Positions 2,465-52,470 of a DNA stretch of 64,000 nt are shown one piece after another (within the stretch, counting starts at the first letter, position 1; every line of letters starts with the position of its first letter). Made by a program: the position numbers and the translations under genes. The notes beneath the pieces were generated by a model that worked only from the letters and a program-made list of their open reading frames with translations, made no database searches and was not told where the DNA came from. The DNA lies in sequence record PQ850622.1. One strand, 5' to 3'. Origin of the DNA: Escherichia phage OliverMaurmann_Bas86.

Positions 2465-3268
2465 TTGGCTATCGAAACAACTGCGGTAGTTACTACCGAT
2501 TTAAACCCCCTATACCCACGGGACAGGGACTACCTTTATGAAGGGGCTGCCCAGATACGACTGGTCAAACAAGTCTTAATTAACACTTTCCCTAACATCA
2601 CAGAGCCGGTTCAACTTGACTCAGATTCTTTCAACATCCTAGCAAACAAGGTCTCTTTTACTGGAGACTCTATGGACGTTGGTGGTTTGATGATTAAGAA
2701 CCTAACTCCGGGAACTGGTGATAAAGATGCTGTAACCAAAGGTCAGATGGAAGCTTTCATGTTGAATTGGATGCAAAATAAACTATACCGTATTGGTTCT
2801 TATTACATCACTGAGGAAGATATTAATCCGGGAGACTCCAGCTCTCTTGGCTTCGGTTCTTGGGCTAAAGTAACTGGTGTTGTTATGGGTACTGGTGTTG
2901 TTAACCCTGACGGTTCTGTTCCTAACGCCCAGCGTGTGGAATTCCAAGCAGGTGGTACAGGAGGTCGTGTATTCAACACAATCCGTGCTGATAATATGCC
3001 TCTTACTACAATCAATGGTTCTAGTTTCCAAGTCAGTTCTTATTCCCACTCGCACAACATCACGATGGGTCGAGGTGATGCTAGTGGTCACAATAGCAGC
3101 CCTAATTGGTATAGTCCGGGTGGTGGTTACACTCAGGTAACTGACACCAACACTCACTCCCACTCAATCACAGGTTCTGTTAGTTTTGGGCGTGATGATG
3201 TATCAAGACAACCTATCAACACTTTGCCGCCTTTCAGAGCAGCGCATATTTGGAGACGTATTAGCTAA
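2465..3268 (+). CDS. Tail fiber-like protein with C-terminal HxH repeats
   Basis: TTG start behind ggaggtg. DAVTKGQMEAF fiber N-motif. HSHSHNIT..THSHSITG repeats resemble metal-binding fiber tips. Confidence 0.6.
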   Translation: MAIETTAVVTTDLNPLYPRDRDYLYEGAAQIRLVKQVLINTFPNITEPVQLDSDSFNILANKVSFTGDSMDVGGLMIKNLTPGTGDKDAVTKGQMEAFMLNWMQNKLYRIGSYYITEEDINPGDSSSLGFGSWAKVTGVVMGTGVVNPDGSVPNAQRVEFQAGGTGGRVFNTIRADNMPLTTINGSSFQVSSYSHSHNITMGRGDASGHNSSPNWYSPGGGYTQVTDTNTHSHSITGSVSFGRDDVSRQPINTLPPFRAAHIWRRIS

Positions 3269-7318: not shown

Positions 7319-8350
7319 ATGGCTTATGGAATATGGTGTCAACCTGTAGGACCGGGACCAGCTTCCCCAGCTCCTCTCTTTATTGATAGCGGAAGCACTT
7401 TTCCTCAAATAAAAAATTCAATAAGTGGGAGTTTCAACTTTAACGGGGCTGGTAGATCTTTTCCTATTAGTGGGTGGGATGGGAGTGGTCAAATAGTGAT
7501 TGTACCAACAGGCTCTCTTTGTTGGCAATGGGAGGTTCCTCCTAATTTAGTTCCTGATGTATATTGTGTCAACAATATCTATGTAGAGAATAACACATCA
7601 TTCAGGGTTACATTAAACCAAAACCCGGGAAGCAACCCTTTGTTTGACTGTGGTTTCAATGTATATCAAATCTACCCAAGAGCTGATAGGAACTATGGAA
7701 TAACCTTCTCTAATACAGCTGATTATTTCTCTATCTCAGATGCTGGGATTGTGGGTCAATGCATCTGGGCTTGGCAAGGAACTATAAACAACGCTCTACA
7801 GATACCTGATATTGGTGGTTTCTATATGCCTAATGCTGTAGTTTTTGCTAACTGGTCTGATGGTGGTGTTGGTTTATCTTATACATCAGGAGATAGGGTG
7901 ATTCGAGTTTATCAAAACAGGTCTTATAACAATGGCAACACTAATGAAGGTGGTTCTGTGTTTGCTAGGGTTGCTGTATTTTGTAATGGTGCTGGGGTTC
8001 CTGAACACAACGGCGGTTTAAATATATACTCTCCCGGAACTACTCAGTGCGTATTCTCTACTTATAGGTCTCCTTTTACAGTAGACACTTTCGTAGGCTC
8101 AGCAGGTGGAAATACTGGCTTAGCTTATCCTATGATTCCTCTGTCTTCTGGAGTTGGAGCTATCAGAGGAAGTGGGAGTGGTTGGTATTATCAACAAATG
8201 CGTTCTCATACCATGTCAGGGTCTTCAATAGGAACTGGATATGGTAGATATATGTTCCAATGGTCTAATAGTTATGACTTAGGTTCTAATGCTGCTGTTA
8301 ATATCTCCATCCCTGTAATCAACGCTGCTAAGATTTTTGCAGGTTTATGA
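7319..8350 (+). CDS. Hypothetical virion protein
   Basis: Long ORF tightly coupled to its neighbours in the late operon. No motif recognised. Confidence 0.55.
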   Translation: MAYGIWCQPVGPGPASPAPLFIDSGSTFPQIKNSISGSFNFNGAGRSFPISGWDGSGQIVIVPTGSLCWQWEVPPNLVPDVYCVNNIYVENNTSFRVTLNQNPGSNPLFDCGFNVYQIYPRADRNYGITFSNTADYFSISDAGIVGQCIWAWQGTINNALQIPDIGGFYMPNAVVFANWSDGGVGLSYTSGDRVIRVYQNRSYNNGNTNEGGSVFARVAVFCNGAGVPEHNGGLNIYSPGTTQCVFSTYRSPFTVDTFVGSAGGNTGLAYPMIPLSSGVGAIRGSGSGWYYQQMRSHTMSGSSIGTGYGRYMFQWSNSYDLGSNAAVNISIPVINAAKIFAGL

Positions 8351-8362
8351 TAAGGAGTTTTT

Positions 8363-9160
8363 ATGACAAAAATAATGGGAGTGTCAGAGCTTGACCCTTT
8401 GGTCCAACAAGCTTCTAAGAAATATGGCATTCCTGCTGCTCTTATACATGCAGTGATTCAGAGAGAGTCTAATGGAAGACCTTCTGTTGAATCTGGTACA
8501 GGACCAGTAGGTTTAATGCAAATCAGTAAGGGGTTGGCTAAAGATTATGGATATAAACTTGAAGATAGGTTAGACCCTGCAAAGAATATTGACATGGGTG
8601 CTAGATATTTAAGAGATAACCTGAAAGCTTTTGATGGTGATGTGAGGAAGGCTTTGGTGGGGTATTCAGAAGGAACTGGTGGTGCTAAGCAAATGTTTGC
8701 TGGTAAGAGAGGGTTTACACCTCAAGCTTTAGATTCAATGAATAATAAGCTGTTCCTACCATTCTTTGATAAGAACACAGCAGCGGCACAAGTGGCTAAT
8801 CCTGTAGGTGCTTTGAAAGCAGTTCAGCCTGTGGACCAGTTTGATTCTAATACGCTGACTAGAGAAGGTGCTGCAAACGCTCCTACTCAAGCAGAGATAG
8901 CTGCAAGCAAGGCTGGAGCTTTAGGTGGTCGTCCTGTAGAGTTTTACTCTGATGAACAATCTACTGGGGAAAATCAAAAACCTCAACAGAACTTTGGAAA
9001 TGCTGTATTGGCAGCTGCTTCTATGCTTGCAGGAAAACAGCCTAACTCTCAAACCGTACAGAGAGCACATGCCCCTACTCAAGCAGGTTCTCGATACAGT
9101 CCACAAACACAAGCCGTGCTGAGACGTTTGTCTAGCATAGGTACTGATATTTACAGATAA
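8363..9160 (+). CDS. Lytic transglycosylase (SLT domain), probably virion-associated
   Basis: IQRESNGRP..GPVGLMQIS..Y is the SLT catalytic Glu-Ser and GLMQ motif. Confidence 0.85.
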   Translation: MTKIMGVSELDPLVQQASKKYGIPAALIHAVIQRESNGRPSVESGTGPVGLMQISKGLAKDYGYKLEDRLDPAKNIDMGARYLRDNLKAFDGDVRKALVGYSEGTGGAKQMFAGKRGFTPQALDSMNNKLFLPFFDKNTAAAQVANPVGALKAVQPVDQFDSNTLTREGAANAPTQAEIAASKAGALGGRPVEFYSDEQSTGENQKPQQNFGNAVLAAASMLAGKQPNSQTVQRAHAPTQAGSRYSPQTQAVLRRLSSIGTDIYR

Positions 9161-15900: not shown

Positions 15901-17398
15901 TACCTATAACCGAGAAGTTAACATGTTCAACAAGGCTAACAAGAACTCTCAATACGAAGCAGCGGCTAAACACTTGCAAGCACGTCAAGAACGTCTTGAG
16001 ACGCTCCGTAACAGAGCTAAGGCTCGTAATGATGCCAAGGCAGCTATGGAAGCTGAAAAGCAGTCATTGGAAGCTATAGCGGCTCAGAAATCCGAGATGG
16101 AGAAGATGTTCAAAGAGTTGCCTGAAAGTGTCAGAGAAGCTCAGGAAGGTCGTACTTTGAAACAGCTTGCTGCTCACCACGATAAAAACTCTCCAGTACC
16201 ACCAGAGCGTTTCCGTAGTATTATTGAACGTATTCACAACGCTGAGAGTGATTACCTCGATCGCAAACGTCGTTTGACCGAAGCAGAGGAAGATGCTCGT
16301 GAGGCTAAGTGGAATAGGATGTATGAACAGGCTGAGGAAATGAACCGTAGGTTTGATATTGATTCTAGAGTGAAGAGAGACAAGGCTCTGAAAGAAGCTC
16401 AGGAACGAGAGAATGACCTAATGGCAGTTCAACGTCAACGTGATGACATTCATAAACGTTTAGTCAACACTCTGGAAGAGAAGGGGGTTTCTAGAGAGGA
16501 TGCTGAAGCGTATGCTGGTTCTTATATGGACAATCGGTATGCTTTGTTAGAGAAACCTATGACTCCAGTGGAACATCAGAATGCTCGTGCTCGTATCGAA
16601 TCTGACGTAGAGAAGTTTGTTAAGAAGTATGAAACAGCTACTCCAATCGAAAGAGAGATTGCTAAGGCAACTGGTGATGCAGATGGGAAAGCTTCTGACC
16701 TTGATGCAGAAACAGCAAAAGCTATCGAAGATGCTCGTAAAGTTGATTCTGATTTTAAGAAACTTTTAGATGAAGAGAAAGAAATGGAGAAGATTCGTTC
16801 GGCTCTACCTGAGGATGAAAGATCTCAGGCTAACTCTGATATTCTTGAAAGTATTAAGAAGCAGGAAGATGACTTTGCTAACAAAGCAGAGAAAGCTTTT
16901 ATTGAAGGGAAAGACTTGCAGGAGTTGGCGAGTGTTGCAGAGGTTCTAGATAGGGTTCATGGTGCAGATAAGGCTGGTAACAACCGTCGATTTGTACGTG
17001 CTCTACAGACTGCTGCTGAGAACAAGAAACGTTATGGAGATAATCCAGTGGCTTGGTTTAGTGCTGATGATTATTCTGCTATTGCGAAACTTGGTGCTGC
17101 TTCGGCAGGTGGTAACAAATCTCGAGCACTTGAGAAAATCTTTGGTTCTACAGCAGAACAAGCTAAAGGGAAACTTTTAGGGAGGGATGATGTAGCTAAG
17201 ATTAGACGTGTGATTGAAGCGAATCCTAATGCTAAGATTCCTTCTTACAAGACAACTACTCGACAAGAGTATTTACAGTTCTTGGAGAAGTATAATGATG
17301 AGGGAGAGTTGAAAGTCAAACGTGGTTCTCTGTCTGACAAGTTAGAAAGGGGTAAGCGTCAAGCTAAACTTCGTGTTAGAGTTCGAGCTAAGGAGTAA
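12953..17398 (+). CDS. Very large (1481 aa) internal virion/ejection-type protein
   Basis: Gly/Ala-rich hydrophobic N-part followed by a very long E/K/A/R coiled coil. Internal tandem repeat LTAR(D/E)LVAQRRA. Confidence 0.7.
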   Translation: MANLKSWEEASKAPAYLNASPEQQAQMREQYKAAGGTIPETQPQEQPQQEERGVIGEFAQGVSNALQSGGANIAASAAKGLGGLVEIGENLTGSETSYGKRIQENSKQLLEERLSKIEDGFGKTAGQYAGVAADIGLTVANPAVAAAVIAARETGRAYADQTPKEDEDKSILDAALVGGANYAAQKILPGMTGTASTTLGRVGQSVASNAVAGAKGGAIVGAAEAQNKYGDDTTLANVLEGAIEEGALGAAYGGAIGGVHGLISRPSPQVFDRTPEHVKTDIAAEDEAIRKAANADELREAYAKAENANAASALNLLDENGFRITDAVAMDSPAVQRILNTDQNRAEKAATVQKDSSNVPGLNPLASPKKTQGKAFADNEYNQKQAVAMKDAMADYTKDNTKALTDVLDNLDRELVALRASGDFTGSAIDIKNRTQADRDFIDAYKTFYSEANRFKARDGEDLNNFIDKATQLQKLSENVSPEMKKAIGGLKKLKGMPEGFNPIQDAFTLNNTAKFMSNQDRGWTSLTDDGFREAPAPVLVKNPLGAAKYVLNRFTSDRARAQREKQQSANSEAIRSLARADLEVQRARTQAEEARAKMEEEPTTEDIKFRTQNDAPSEPVREEPSATTVTEEIPSSPAPTETPLTARDLVAQRRALQQAELRRQETEAAQAQESATPEPEPQQEALTARELVAQRRAVAEAKKRQEAEEAERAKEAPEEAVEEPKEKPEPLPARAPKAPEKAPEPVKPSLGVERLASMSTAARQATKDRADRFARSLYSAAAKAKATAENFLSYKGDPKELMRRIRQEDQANNTQRHEEMARNQLASQQGIASAKSQHVRASFADWVKERGLPSDIATKALRAEEKGLGGNVTSLDSLKRRAERLYQKQRDDEFDRLYREALEENKAFDKKDAPKLVDQKKELQDEIGTLLDAEPLRPAQKDAMRKIMEDFVESKFKSSEKAGRVEALEVGQMKDVWDGFINTYNREVNMFNKANKNSQYEAAAKHLQARQERLETLRNRAKARNDAKAAMEAEKQSLEAIAAQKSEMEKMFKELPESVREAQEGRTLKQLAAHHDKNSPVPPERFRSIIERIHNAESDYLDRKRRLTEAEEDAREAKWNRMYEQAEEMNRRFDIDSRVKRDKALKEAQERENDLMAVQRQRDDIHKRLVNTLEEKGVSREDAEAYAGSYMDNRYALLEKPMTPVEHQNARARIESDVEKFVKKYETATPIEREIAKATGDADGKASDLDAETAKAIEDARKVDSDFKKLLDEEKEMEKIRSALPEDERSQANSDILESIKKQEDDFANKAEKAFIEGKDLQELASVAEVLDRVHGADKAGNNRRFVRALQTAAENKKRYGDNPVAWFSADDYSAIAKLGAASAGGNKSRALEKIFGSTAEQAKGKLLGRDDVAKIRRVIEANPNAKIPSYKTTTRQEYLQFLEKYNDEGELKVKRGSLSDKLERGKRQAKLRVRVRAKE

Positions 17399-17406
17399 AC
17401 AAGAAA

Positions 17407-17443
17407 AGCCCCCAACCTGAAAAGGAAGGGGGCTTCTTTATTT
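17407..17443. terminator. Bidirectional terminator between convergent operons
   Basis: AGCCCCC (17407-13) pairs with GGGGGCT (17428-34), flanked by an A run upstream and a T run downstream. Confidence 0.7.
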
Positions 17444-17495
17444 CTAGATGTTAGAATCCATCGAATTCATCATACATCCCAATTTTCTTCTTCAA

Positions 17496-17762
17496 TCACA
17501 AGACCTCCCAATCATCTGCAAACAAATCACCCTGAGATGGAACCCATCCGGGTTGCATAATACCCTGAGCATTCTTTAAGTCTAAATGAGGGGCGATGAC
17601 GAATCGACCAGTGATGCCAGCTTTTTCATAATCAGAACCCGGTCGAGCTTCTTCTACTTCATATCCACCTTCTTTGATGATGAACTGATTTGCACCATTC
17701 CAACCAGAGCGAGCAATCCTCTTCCCTTCTTTTACTTTAATAAGCGCTGAACTGAAATCCAT
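17496..17762 (-). CDS. DUF2829-family protein (Tad2-like candidate)
   Basis: MDFSSALIKVKEGKRIARSGWNG start and a W-P-S-x-x-D-L-F-A-D-D-W-E C-terminus fit my recollection of the DUF2829 profile. Confidence 0.7.
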   Translation of the reverse strand: MDFSSALIKVKEGKRIARSGWNGANQFIIKEGGYEVEEARPGSDYEKAGITGRFVIAPHLDLKNAQGIMQPGWVPSQGDLFADDWEVL

Positions 17763-17770
17763 TTGTTCTC

Positions 17771-18073
17771 CTAGATTAAATCGTAATACTTAATAATATC
17801 AGAGAGCTTAAACTCTCGAATGTCATTCTTATCATTGTCCCAAGCGGTCATTATCCAACAAGGTTTGCCCCCATTATGATAACGGGAAGAAGCAACTGAG
17901 GTTCGTAAAGGAATAACGGAGCGGTCTGCAATCTCGCCTCTCCAATTACGATAGCTAAAGCGAAGAACTTGTTTCGTAGATACTTGATCATGTGTGTTTT
18001 CCTTGTTCATAGATTCAAAGATTTCCCTTTCTTCAGGAGTCTCTAGATTTTTTAAATTCGCGTCTTGCATCAT
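17771..18073 (-). CDS. Hypothetical protein, WYL-like pattern
   Basis: FSYRNWRGEIADRSVIPL..CWIMTAWDNDKNDIREFKLSDI resembles the WYL domain pattern (weak). Confidence 0.45.
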   Translation of the reverse strand: MMQDANLKNLETPEEREIFESMNKENTHDQVSTKQVLRFSYRNWRGEIADRSVIPLRTSVASSRYHNGGKPCWIMTAWDNDKNDIREFKLSDIIKYYDLI

Positions 18074-18437
18074 TCTCTTCCTTAGTTTTTATCTTATGGC
18101 AAGGCTCTTTGCATAAGACTTGAAAACCATCTTTCTCAACTAAAGCCCTCTCGATGATTTCATCCCAAGTAGCTTCATGGTCCACTGGGACAATAGGCTC
18201 TATATGGTCTACTGCTACGTCTTTAAGAGGAGAATCATTACCACACATAGCACACTTATAGTGCATTGCCAGTTTGCCAGTTTTAGGGTTGATTTTACGT
18301 TCTGTCTGAGCCTCTTTGAGAGAATCAAACATAGGTTTCCATTTCCTAGTCAGAGAACGAATCCCTGACTTAATGAAGGAGTTATAACGTGCTTCAGTCC
18401 ACTGACCAGAGCATCTTGTCTTCTCAGCTTTCGCCAT
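18033..18437 (-). CDS. HNH endonuclease
   Basis: CAMCGN..VAVDHIEPIVPVDH..LCKEPCHKIKT gives a CxxC..DH..H..CH arrangement. Confidence 0.65.
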   Translation of the reverse strand: MAKAEKTRCSGQWTEARYNSFIKSGIRSLTRKWKPMFDSLKEAQTERKINPKTGKLAMHYKCAMCGNDSPLKDVAVDHIEPIVPVDHEATWDEIIERALVEKDGFQVLCKEPCHKIKTKEENDARREFKKSRDS

Positions 18438-18615
18438 AACCTACATCCATATCAGCGTCTTCCCAAATGCGTTTATTGACTCGGTGTGATTCTTTATCAG
18501 CACGAGGGATACGACCTGTGCGACGATCAAATGCTTGGTGCTTAATCTTTTGATCTTTACGAGATTCACGAGTAGAGGAGTTTTCATCATACGAACGATA
18601 GTCAAATTTACCCAT
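18424..18615 (-). CDS. Small basic hypothetical protein
   Basis: 63-aa ORF that fits the gap between coupled genes. Confidence 0.4.
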   Translation of the reverse strand: MGKFDYRSYDENSSTRESRKDQKIKHQAFDRRTGRIPRADKESHRVNKRIWEDADMDVGYGES

Positions 18616-20710: not shown

Positions 20711-20935
20711 TTAAACTACACAGAATAAATACATTGCTGTTTCAGGGGAAGGTATGTGGTCACTAGGATATCTAACCCTAATCCACTCATCATCTTCTGC
20801 TACATAATAAGCCCAATAAGACCCATTTTCATTAATAAAGAACTTGAAGGTACAACCAAAGATTTGGTTATTGTGTTCCCATACTGCATGAAACTGAGTA
20901 ACACCTTCTGGTATTGTAAGTTCCGCTCTGATCAT
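20711..20935 (-). CDS. Hypothetical protein
   Basis: 74-aa ORF, coupled (ATGA-type overlap) to its upstream neighbour. Confidence 0.5.
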   Translation of the reverse strand: MIRAELTIPEGVTQFHAVWEHNNQIFGCTFKFFINENGSYWAYYVAEDDEWIRVRYPSDHIPSPETAMYLFCVV

Positions 20936-21198
20936 TGTATTCCTCTCTCCTTTAGAGCTTTAAGCAAACCGTTGTGGTTAGCGGCACAGGTTGTATAATT
21001 GTCCTGATACCACTCGAGTGTTGTTGCAAGTGCTACTCCCTGTCCACTCTGAAGTAAAGGGAGGTCTACATCACATTCAGCTTTTAGGTTTGTTGGTAAG
21101 GGCATTAGCTGCCTGCTGTTGTCGCTCGTTGAACAAGCCATCAAACTAGAAGCGAGCAAAATCACCAAACAACTCTTTTGCTTTTTCTTTGTAAGCAT
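20932..21198 (-). CDS. Outer-membrane spanin (o-spanin) lipoprotein candidate
   Basis: ATG at 21198 behind aaggtg. MLTKKKQKSCLVILLASSLMAC contains the lipobox LMAC. The 5' end overlaps the 3' end of the HNH gene. Confidence 0.6.
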   Translation of the reverse strand: MLTKKKQKSCLVILLASSLMACSTSDNSRQLMPLPTNLKAECDVDLPLLQSGQGVALATTLEWYQDNYTTCAANHNGLLKALKERGIQ

Positions 21199-21631
21199 TT
21201 TCTGCACCTTCTTGAGTGCTATGATAACCAAGCCAAATTACTTTGTTTTGATATCCGATACGAGCACTCCATTTATTAATATCTGACCTGTATCCTACAC
21301 CTTTTATTCCAGTTAAAGAGTTCTTTTGAACTATTTTATTGGCATTGTTGAGGACAGGTGTTGCTTTTCTTAGATTGCTCCAAGAGTTATTAGACTTATC
21401 TAAATCTTTATGGTCTATTTGGAAATCGGGAATTTCTCCAGTTTTTATATACCAAGCAACTCGGTGAGCTTTGTATGTCTTTCTCTGAAAATTCAATGTT
21501 ACATAACCAGCTTTTGTTTTACACCCTGCAACCTTTCCTGCGAGTCTTGAGTTCCACTGAGCGCTCTTATCTTTAGAATGTTTCCAGTACAGAAGACCGG
21601 AAGCCTCGTCATAAGACAGATATTTAATTAA
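21146..21631 (-). CDS. HNH_3 + AP2-domain homing endonuclease (start unresolved)
   Basis: The frame is open to 21631 and encodes YDEASGLLYWKH..GYVTLNFQRKTYKAHRVAW..IDHKD..N, then an AP2-like GVGYR..WSARIGY. There is no in-frame ATG upstream of TTG 21496. Confidence 0.75.
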   Translation of the reverse strand, partial: LIKYLSYDEASGLLYWKHSKDKSAQWNSRLAGKVAGCKTKAGYVTLNFQRKTYKAHRVAWYIKTGEIPDFQIDHKDLDKSNNSWSNLRKATPVLNNANKIVQKNSLTGIKGVGYRSDINKWSARIGYQNKVIWLGYHSTQEGAENAYKEKAKELFGDFARF

Positions 21632-21969
21632 TTCTTTAATTTCAGTGCCTCCGCTGCTTGTTGTTGTCGTTCATTGAAAAGTCCTACATACTCATCACTA
21701 GCACACACATTGTAAAAAACTGGCTTAGTCTTTTCATAATGCATCTCTTTGTAAATAGTTTCCGTGTTCTTCTTCCAGTTAGATAAACCAGTCAGAACTT
21801 TCTGAGCCACTTCATCAGCAGCCTTAGCTCTCTCAACCTCAATCTCTTGCTGTTTCTTCTCTTGGTCAAGAGCATTACTATCACTTCTGTATTGCTCAAA
21901 CTTGACACCACCAAAGAAAACCAGAGCTGTGAAGATTAAAAAACCTATATTGTTTTGAAGCTTTTCCAT
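21628..21969 (-). CDS. Inner-membrane spanin (Rz-like i-spanin)
   Basis: ATG at 21969 behind ggag. N-terminal TMD IGFLIFTALVFFGG, then a coiled coil, then ..NVCASDEYVGLFNE, which is Rz-like. Confidence 0.7.
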   Translation of the reverse strand: MEKLQNNIGFLIFTALVFFGGVKFEQYRSDSNALDQEKKQQEIEVERAKAADEVAQKVLTGLSNWKKNTETIYKEMHYEKTKPVFYNVCASDEYVGLFNERQQQAAEALKLKN

Positions 21970-21981
21970 TTTAACTCCAAC

Positions 21982-22005
21982 GAAAAAAGCCACCCGAAGG
22001 TGGCT
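21982..22005 (-). terminator. Rho-independent terminator
   Basis: Minus strand reads GCCACC-ttcg-GGTGGC followed by TTTTTT. Confidence 0.8.
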
Positions 22006-52392: not shown

Positions 52393-52470
52393 TGGTGCAC
52401 CCTACAGGATTCGAACCTGTAACCGACGACTTAGAAGGTCGCTACTCTAATCCAATTGAGCTAAGGGTGC
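52393..52470 (-). tRNA. tRNA-Arg (anticodon UCU), CCA encoded
   Basis: Minus strand reads GCACCCTTAGCTCAATTGGATTAGAGTAGCGACCTTCTAAGTCGTCGGTTACAGGTTCGAATCCTGTAGGGTGCACCA. 7-bp acceptor stem GCACCCT/AGGGTGC, anticodon loop CTTCTAA, T-loop GGTTCGAATCC. Confidence 0.9.

Follow-up and report, generated by a model that had tools for sequence, protein, structure and literature searches.

Does the small gene at the end of a leftward operon in Escherichia phage OliverMaurmann_Bas86 encode a sponge for immune signalling nucleotides and, if so, which signal is the most likely target? The question arises from a stretch of 64,000 nucleotides of this phage (sequence record PQ850622.1), here called the window, which belongs to a Gordonclarkvirinae (phiEco32-like, C3-morphotype) podophage of E. 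coli. The original prediction assigned the 88-residue product of the gene to the DUF2829 proteins, which include Tad2, and, by citing gcADPR, implied type I Thoeris. The gene is referred to below as tad2-like.

The ORF is present on the minus strand exactly as predicted (Table 1). It starts with ATG and its translated sequence is MDFSSALIKVKEGKRIARSGWNGANQFIIKEGGYEVEEARPGSDYEKAGITGRFVIAPHLDLKNAQGIMQPGWVPSQGDLFADDWEVL. The AGGAG of its Shine-Dalgarno sequence overlaps the TAG stop codon of the preceding WYL-like gene. Strong purifying selection acts on tad2-like; pairwise dN/dS among seven orthologues ranges from 0.11 to 0.37, and the amino acid changes cluster in the insertion at residues 27-57. 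Two antisense ORFs, at 17448-17579 and 17586-17750 on the plus strand, were considered and rejected, as they lack family support and the substitutions fit the minus-strand frame. In Bas87 and Bas88 the gene is annotated as encoding a 'hypothetical protein' (Bas87_0021, Bas88_0021).

Table 1. Coordinates of tad2-like and of the features associated with it in the window
Feature	Position	Strand	Basis
tad2-like CDS, 88 aa plus stop codon, DUF2829 / PF11195	17496..17762	-	ORF list, Pfam full-length
Shine-Dalgarno sequence AGGAG, 5 nt before the tad2-like ATG	17768..17772	-	read from sequence
Bidirectional intrinsic terminator shared by the leftward operon and the rightward 1481-aa late gene	17395..17436	.	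hairpin fold, SU7 annotation
WYL-domain protein, 100 aa, upstream neighbour	17771..18073	-	PF13280 26.7 bits (cut-off 21.8); phrog_3715 2e-22
Candidate phage-sigma (gp36-type) promoter TAATGTAAA	20705..20713	-	one mismatch to consensus, upstream of the sigma-factor gene

The tad2-like protein is a clear member of the Tad2 (DUF2829) family, and membership is confirmed by the profile, the predicted fold and the ligand-contact residues together. Both motifs on which the original prediction was based recur letter for letter, at the N-terminus as F3-x2-A6-L7-x3-K11-x-G13-K14-x3-R18-x-G20-W21-N22 and at the C-terminus as W73-x-P75-S76-x2-D79-L80-x-A82-x-D84-W85-E86. The profile search that it proposed gave a match, well outside what chance would yield, to Pfam PF11195 (Tad2-like, Thoeris anti-defense 2-like domain) with an E value of 5.6e-23 and a score of 81.7 bits, relative to a gathering cut-off of 25 bits, and the match covers the profile end to end (positions 1-73 of 73). 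The protein also matches phrog_1048 and phrog_872; a search of NCBIfam yielded zero matches. In a sequence search of the PDB, every solved Tad2 was recovered from sequence alone, with Tad2 matches of 4.6e-10 to 1.7e-8 that comprise SptTad2 (8WJD, 4.6e-10), SPO1 Tad2 (8SME, 1.3e-8) and ModTad2 (8V3E/9EIB, about 1.5e-8); HgmTad2/AcrIIA7 was found at 1.3e-8 (8KBI) and 8.4e-8 (9KZR).

The structural comparison with Tad2, likewise proposed at the outset, led to the same family. An AlphaFold2 model of the single chain, built from an alignment of 41 homologues, has a mean pLDDT of 94.8 and a pTM of 0.80. It is predicted to contain a helix at residues 3-11 and strands at residues 16-18, 27-31, 59-63, 69-71 and 85-87, and it thus displays the Tad2 fold with an N-terminal helix, an antiparallel beta-sheet and a variable insertion after beta2. 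Foldseek returned 24 PDB matches with E < 1e-3, all 24 of them Tad2 chains with query-normalised TM scores of 0.65-0.81. The best match was ModTad2 with bound His-ADPR (9eib_B, E 4e-8, TM 0.77), and the first match outside Tad2 had an E value of 0.6. The gene does not extend the Tad2 concept; the family is well characterised and has thousands of members, 7,492 homologues having been catalogued in IMG/VR by Hadary et al.

The residues that contact the ligand are known from two Tad2 proteins. In SPO1 Tad2 in complex with 1''-3' gcADPR, W25 and W73 form van der Waals contacts, N26 and D79 polar contacts and I63 and T65 non-polar contacts, T78 hydrogen-bonds the adenine, and D67, H71 and S76 coordinate waters (Yirmiya et al., bioRxiv 10.1101/2023.05.01.538930). 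In HgmTad2 the contacts are W21, N22, G23, W87, L88, S90, T92 and D93, and binding is lost in the W21A/N22A and S90A/T92A/D93A mutants (Li et al., bioRxiv 10.1101/2023.11.15.567273). The core of these contacts is kept in the tad2-like protein: W25, N26, W73, S76 and D79 of SPO1 correspond to W21, N22, W73, S76 and D79, and W21, N22, G23, W87, S90 and D93 of HgmTad2 to W21, N22, G23, W73, S76 and D79. All six residues (W21, N22, G23, W73, S76, D79) are invariant in the alignment of 41 subclade members. The predicted role as a sponge for immune signalling nucleotides stands.

Specificity differs between members of the Tad2 family. ModTad2 blocks type II Thoeris, the signal of which is His-ADPR, and does not block type I, and some Tad2 homologues inhibit Pycsar or type IV Thoeris. 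The comparison drew on Table S2 of Hadary et al. 2025, from which sequence and phenotype were taken for 18 Tad2 proteins, and on the Tad2 constructs in Table S3 of Sabonis et al. 2024 (bioRxiv 10.1101/2024.01.03.573942). Specificity is labile, in that seven of these 18 proteins inhibited none of seven systems. The nearest experimentally characterised relative of the tad2-like protein is encoded by the ORF of 'pSG-thrC-phSpank-CcaTad2', a protein of 90 residues that is 72% identical (61/85, E 4e-47) and carries all of the subclade hallmarks. CcaTad2 and TmoTad2 both abolish the type II Thoeris of B. amyloliquefaciens Y2 (bioRxiv 10.1101/2024.01.03.573942), an activity assayed with the Bacillus system in B. 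subtilis and not with an E. coli system; no record of a type I Thoeris assay of 'CcaTad2' was found in the literature. In a neighbour-joining tree of the assayed Tad2 proteins, the tad2-like protein is firmly paired with this type II inhibitor, whereas the deeper placement of the pair is not resolved. Because the nearest assayed relative inhibits type II, His-ADPR and not gcADPR is the best-supported ligand. Of the original prediction, the reading as a sponge for a Thoeris signal is supported by an anti-Thoeris homologue, and the reference to gcADPR and type I needs refinement, as that homologue acts on type II.

The labels CcaTad2 (Clostridium cadaveris) and TmoTad2 (Tatumella morbirosei) in Table S3 of that study (bioRxiv 10.1101/2024.01.03.573942) appear to have been swapped. 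The 'CcaTad2' ORF has a GC content of 51% and shares 91% identity with a prophage protein of Pectobacterium parmentieri, and for these two reasons it fits Tatumella better than Clostridium; the 'TmoTad2' ORF has a GC content of 37%. Since both proteins are active, a swap leaves the conclusion unaffected.

The periphery of the pocket provides a second indication. Three positions differ from SPO1 Tad2, with I63 replaced by L62, T65 by N64 and T78 by G78. The same three residues are present in the 'CcaTad2'-labelled protein and in Tad2_68, a validated type II inhibitor, and the corresponding residues of inhibitors restricted to type I are M or I, T/S/A, and T or A. The L-N-G pattern lends weaker support to type II activity, as a correlation over about a dozen proteins rather than a rule. 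Tad2_68 is recorded for type I as 'n / N/A / y' (Hadary et al. Table S2), which we read as also type I-positive; on this reading the pattern is compatible with type I and dual activity is conceivable, such that the tad2-like protein may possibly act against type I Thoeris in addition. Residue 24 (codon at 17691-17693, minus strand) sets the protein apart, as it is Ala within the GWNG(K) motif and Lys in every experimentally active Tad2 that was compared. Within the enterobacterial subclade the residue is polymorphic, either A or K. The Lys at this position corresponds to K71 of AcrIIA7, and no report of it as a ligand contact was found in the literature.

Taken as a whole, the evidence makes it very probable that the tad2-like protein functions as a Tad2-family sponge for one Thoeris signal or another. 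The full statement, with type II Thoeris and His-ADPR as the target, is somewhat less secure and we consider it probable. If it assembles like the Tad2 proteins of known structure, it would be a homotetramer composed of two V-shaped dimers. Two pockets, each located between protomers of different dimers and lined by W21, N22, W73, S76 and D79, would bind an ADP-ribose-derived second messenger of the Thoeris TIR protein, most likely histidine-ADPR, and might also accept the type I signal, 3'cADPR. Deprived of its signal, the Thoeris effector would stay off and infection would continue. The tetramer, the identity of the ligand, the timing of expression and the activity in vivo are what we infer for this protein.

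According to the strongest competing view, the tad2-like protein is a classical type I inhibitor that, like SPO1 Tad2, mainly or exclusively sequesters 1''-3' gcADPR (3'cADPR). All of the core gcADPR contacts of SPO1 Tad2 and HgmTad2 are indeed kept, the 'WVPSQxD' segment is nearer to that of SPO1 (WVPSQTD) than to that of ModTad2 (WTPSVSD), and the best BLAST match among the assayed proteins outside the subclade is a type I inhibitor, Tad2_83 (37.5%, 66.6 bits). Inhibitors of several types exist as well, such as Tad2_71. Arguing against a type I inhibitor is the only subclade member that has been assayed, at 72% identity, which inhibits type II and groups with ModTad2, a protein without type I inhibition; moreover, the replacement of T78 by Gly, T65 by Asn and I63 by Leu is a combination seen in type II inhibitors. 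We regard the classical type I inhibitor as unlikely.

A wider activity can also be envisaged. The enterobacterial subclade defined by 'GWNG(A/K)xQ ... LKNAQG ... SQGD', including its A24 variant, might consist of broad-spectrum or two-pocket sponges that, in the manner of Tad2_71 or ModTad2, neutralise several E. coli systems, a doubtful proposition in our estimation; the systems may be, for example, type II together with type I or IV Thoeris, or Thoeris together with Pycsar. A related proposal, which would add to the binding of His-ADPR and not replace it, assumes that a Thoeris signal is bound along with cUMP/cCMP (Pycsar) or a cyclic dinucleotide (CBASS), the latter ligands in an intra-dimer pocket. 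ModTad2, the best structural match of the AlphaFold2 model, inhibits Pycsar via its intra-dimer pocket, as does Tad2_70, and Pycsar occurs in E. coli (E. coli E831). In the model, the insertion strands 34-36 and 54-56 flank a short helix at 44-47, an arrangement that resembles the description of ModTad2. However, Pycsar was inhibited by only 2 of the 18 assayed Tad2 proteins. Cyclic-dinucleotide binding of the HgmTad2 type depends on a beta2-beta5 insertion of 35-41 residues and on the contacts R31, S47, F70 and N85 (bioRxiv 10.1101/2023.11.15.567273). These features were not found in the tad2-like protein: its insertion, residues 32-58 in correspondence to SPO1 36-59, comprises only about 27 residues, and in the alignment R31 and N85 map to E31 and P71. 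A second pocket, whether for cUMP/cCMP or for a cyclic dinucleotide, is rather improbable.

It could also be argued that the protein has the DUF2829 fold and is inactive against the known signalling systems, or that it binds a signal that has yet to be identified. None of the seven systems was inhibited by the 7 of 18 Tad2 proteins mentioned above or, more broadly, by 19 of 84 sponge homologues (Table S2), and A24 is absent from all of the active Tad2 proteins compared. Most of the inactive Tad2 proteins (Tad2_69, 75, 80, 81 and 84) lack GWNG or the C-terminal half, whereas the tad2-like protein keeps all conserved contacts; inactive Tad2_73 and Tad2_78, however, do retain GWNG. Strong purifying selection and the activity of the 72%-identical homologue speak against an inert protein, to which we assign a slim chance. 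E. coli carries CRISPR systems of types I-E and I-F and is not known to carry type II-A, so that the target of an anti-CRISPR of the AcrIIA7 type, in which a tetramer groove binds tracrRNA and blocks assembly of the Cas9 ribonucleoprotein, would be absent from the host. Such a function is practically negligible for the tad2-like protein, although AcrIIA7 is a DUF2829 protein, its chains are matched (8kbi 1.3e-8, 9kzr 8.4e-8) and its core binds tracrRNA without the head domain (PMC13133391). The features of its basic groove were not found. RNA binding by AcrIIA7 requires every one of K58, K66 and K71, and K93 and R101 take part as well (Lee and Park 2026, PMC13133391). The first three correspond to K11, S19 and A24 in the tad2-like protein, so that two of three are lost, and K93 and R101 sit in an insertion that is absent. 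The protein is acidic (net charge -3, pI 5.0) in contrast to the AcrIIA7 core (net charge 0, pI 6.5).

The 2.5 kb around tad2-like are 96.9% identical to phage AnnaHegner (Bas87) and are matched by 98 phage records. In leftward order, the genes of this replication/nucleotide-metabolism operon encode a sigma factor, a dNMP kinase, an exonuclease, a 63-residue ORF, an HNH endonuclease, the WYL-domain protein and the tad2-like protein, followed by the terminator. The predicted position as the last gene of a leftward operon agrees with the hairpin and U-run located beyond tad2-like, and the WYL-like and HNH neighbours named alongside it are both backed by profiles (Table 1; HNH endonuclease PHROGs, 2e-37). 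The terminator consists of a GC-rich hairpin of 9+3 bp and a U-run; the 106-nt stretch folds with -33.3 kcal/mol and a folding z-score of -3.2. In phage SU7 the homologous element carries terminator annotations on both strands, and the alignment shows its conservation; the stop codon of the convergent 1481-aa gene lies at 17398. A generic sigma-70/terminator scan missed this terminator because of its long loop, and it was found by folding.

In phiEco32, the genes for the sigma factor and for nucleotide metabolism form a middle-class cluster whose direction of transcription is opposite to that of the late genes, and the consensus of the middle/late promoters is tAATGTAtA (PMC8948821). From the synteny with phiEco32, tad2-like would be expressed with the middle class. 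The candidate promoter upstream of the sigma-factor gene may, with low confidence, be the start of the transcript that ends with tad2-like; since a scan for the consensus gave 27 matches as compared to 19.4 expected from shuffled sequence, which is no enrichment, it is offered as a suggestion only.

In defence regulators, WYL domains act as ligand sensors. A functional connection of the WYL-domain protein with tad2-like was considered and rejected, because the WYL gene is kept in SU7 and ECBP2, relatives that are both without tad2-like. PDB and NCBIfam sequence searches with the WYL neighbour, a free-standing phage copy of the domain, gave zero matches.

In Bas87, the CDS of an 'Rz-like spanin' is annotated as two joined pieces with an HNH endonuclease gene between them (8086-8978 of the extracted locus). 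The window repeats this layout on the minus strand with a spanin-like ORF at 21628-21993, an HNH ORF at 21146-21496 and a lipoprotein-like ORF at 20932-21231. The layout may reflect an intron, a homing endonuclease gene that has inserted, or an artefact of annotation; a group I intron was not found there by an Rfam scan at the gathering level. The only match of the window at this level is a tRNA gene (52396-52470, minus strand; RF00005, 67.5 bits).

The distribution of tad2-like is sporadic, as that of an accessory gene. It occurs at this locus in 8 of about 98 related records, namely Bas87, E20-1, EK010 (two records), NC-B, TH43, Bas88 and ShigP1; in SU7, ECBP2, phiEco32, PAS59, Bas90 and Bas91 the same slot holds other small ORFs or nothing. 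Proteins with 68-78% identity are encoded by the unrelated phages Murrayvirus IME_EC2, sortsyn and Schitoviridae phage TR2, and similar proteins by prophages of Yersinia, Klebsiella, Pectobacterium, Xenorhabdus, Moellerella and Cronobacter. The prophage homologues are named 'DUF2829 domain-containing protein' or 'Thoeris anti-defense 2-like' in NCBI/UniRef.

The slot itself, at 17440-18440 on the minus strand of the window between the bidirectional terminator and the HNH/exonuclease genes, is a variable region across the Gordonclarkvirinae. It contains tad2-like and the WYL gene in the window, Bas87 and Bas88, the WYL gene alone in SU7 and ECBP2, ORFs of 167 and 79 residues in PAS59 and three tiny ORFs (gp27-29) in phiEco32. 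These other occupants may be anti-defence candidates too. In ShigP1, tad2-like is accompanied by an extra ORF of 121 residues. The ShigP1 orthologue (1501-1761 of the extracted locus) lacks 13 residues of the insertion loop and has a longer, different C-terminus ending in ...DDWEVYMIDFEEENWDV; this orthologue represents natural variation in the part from which other Tad2 proteins build their second pocket. Salmonella phage TR2 carries two DUF2829 genes about 600 bp apart (2020-2403 and 2995-3267 of the extracted locus), gp90 with 127 residues and gp87 with 90 residues, the latter 68% identical to the tad2-like protein. The two proteins may differ in ligand specificity.

These results identify a predicted anti-Thoeris gene carried by some of the phiEco32-like E. 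coli phages. Phages of this group serve in phage-therapy work, and the BASEL collection includes them. Thoeris and Tad2 go unmentioned in the BASEL paper, and Thoeris was not among the defences assayed there. The practical value is modest but real and lies mainly in the corrected annotation of Bas87- and Bas88-like phages, beside the natural comparison set for Thoeris evasion that is formed by Bas87 and Bas88 with the gene and Bas90, Bas91, SU7 and phiEco32 without it at the locus. If the subclade did consist of broad-spectrum sponges, the sporadic presence of the gene could explain differences in host range among nearly identical therapeutic or BASEL phages. The case also illustrates that ligand specificity should not be transferred from the founding member of a family, as the closest relative points to His-ADPR.

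Among the known systems, the phage sponge families Tad1 and Acb2 resemble the tad2-like protein in principle, as small oligomeric proteins that capture a second messenger of immunity; their folds are unrelated and gave zero sequence or structural matches. HgmTad2/AcrIIA7 (PDB 8KBI-8KBM, 9KZR), a dual sponge for gcADPR and cyclic dinucleotides for which tracrRNA binding is also reported, shares the DUF2829 core and the conserved residues of the gcADPR pocket. It differs by an N-terminal head domain that the tad2-like protein does not have, by an insertion of 41 residues as opposed to about 27, and by the RNA-binding residues K66, K71, K93 and R101 of AcrIIA7, which are absent from the tad2-like protein. 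SPO1 Tad2 (Gp34.65; PDB 8SME, 8SMF, 8SMG) is the founding type I inhibitor and sequesters 1''-3' and 1''-2' gcADPR. The Pfam family, the fold, the core contacts and the nearly identical length are held in common with it, whereas the identity is 32%, D67 and H71 are replaced by Q and by P or Q, and SPO1 Tad2 does not inhibit type II Thoeris, in contrast to the nearest assayed relative of the tad2-like protein. The type II Thoeris inhibitors of the ModTad2 clade, including 'CcaTad2', sequester His-ADPR (PDB 9EIB, 8V3E; Sabonis et al. 2024). ModTad2 itself is only 31% identical to the tad2-like protein, residue 24 of the latter is Ala instead of Lys, and tad2-like is carried by a virulent Gordonclarkvirinae podophage and not by a prophage. 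The size of about 88-90 residues and the short insertion are those of the ModTad2 clade, and with the 'CcaTad2' protein the tad2-like protein shares, at 72% identity, the hallmarks GWNG..Q, LKNAQG and QPGWVPSQGDLFA.DW.
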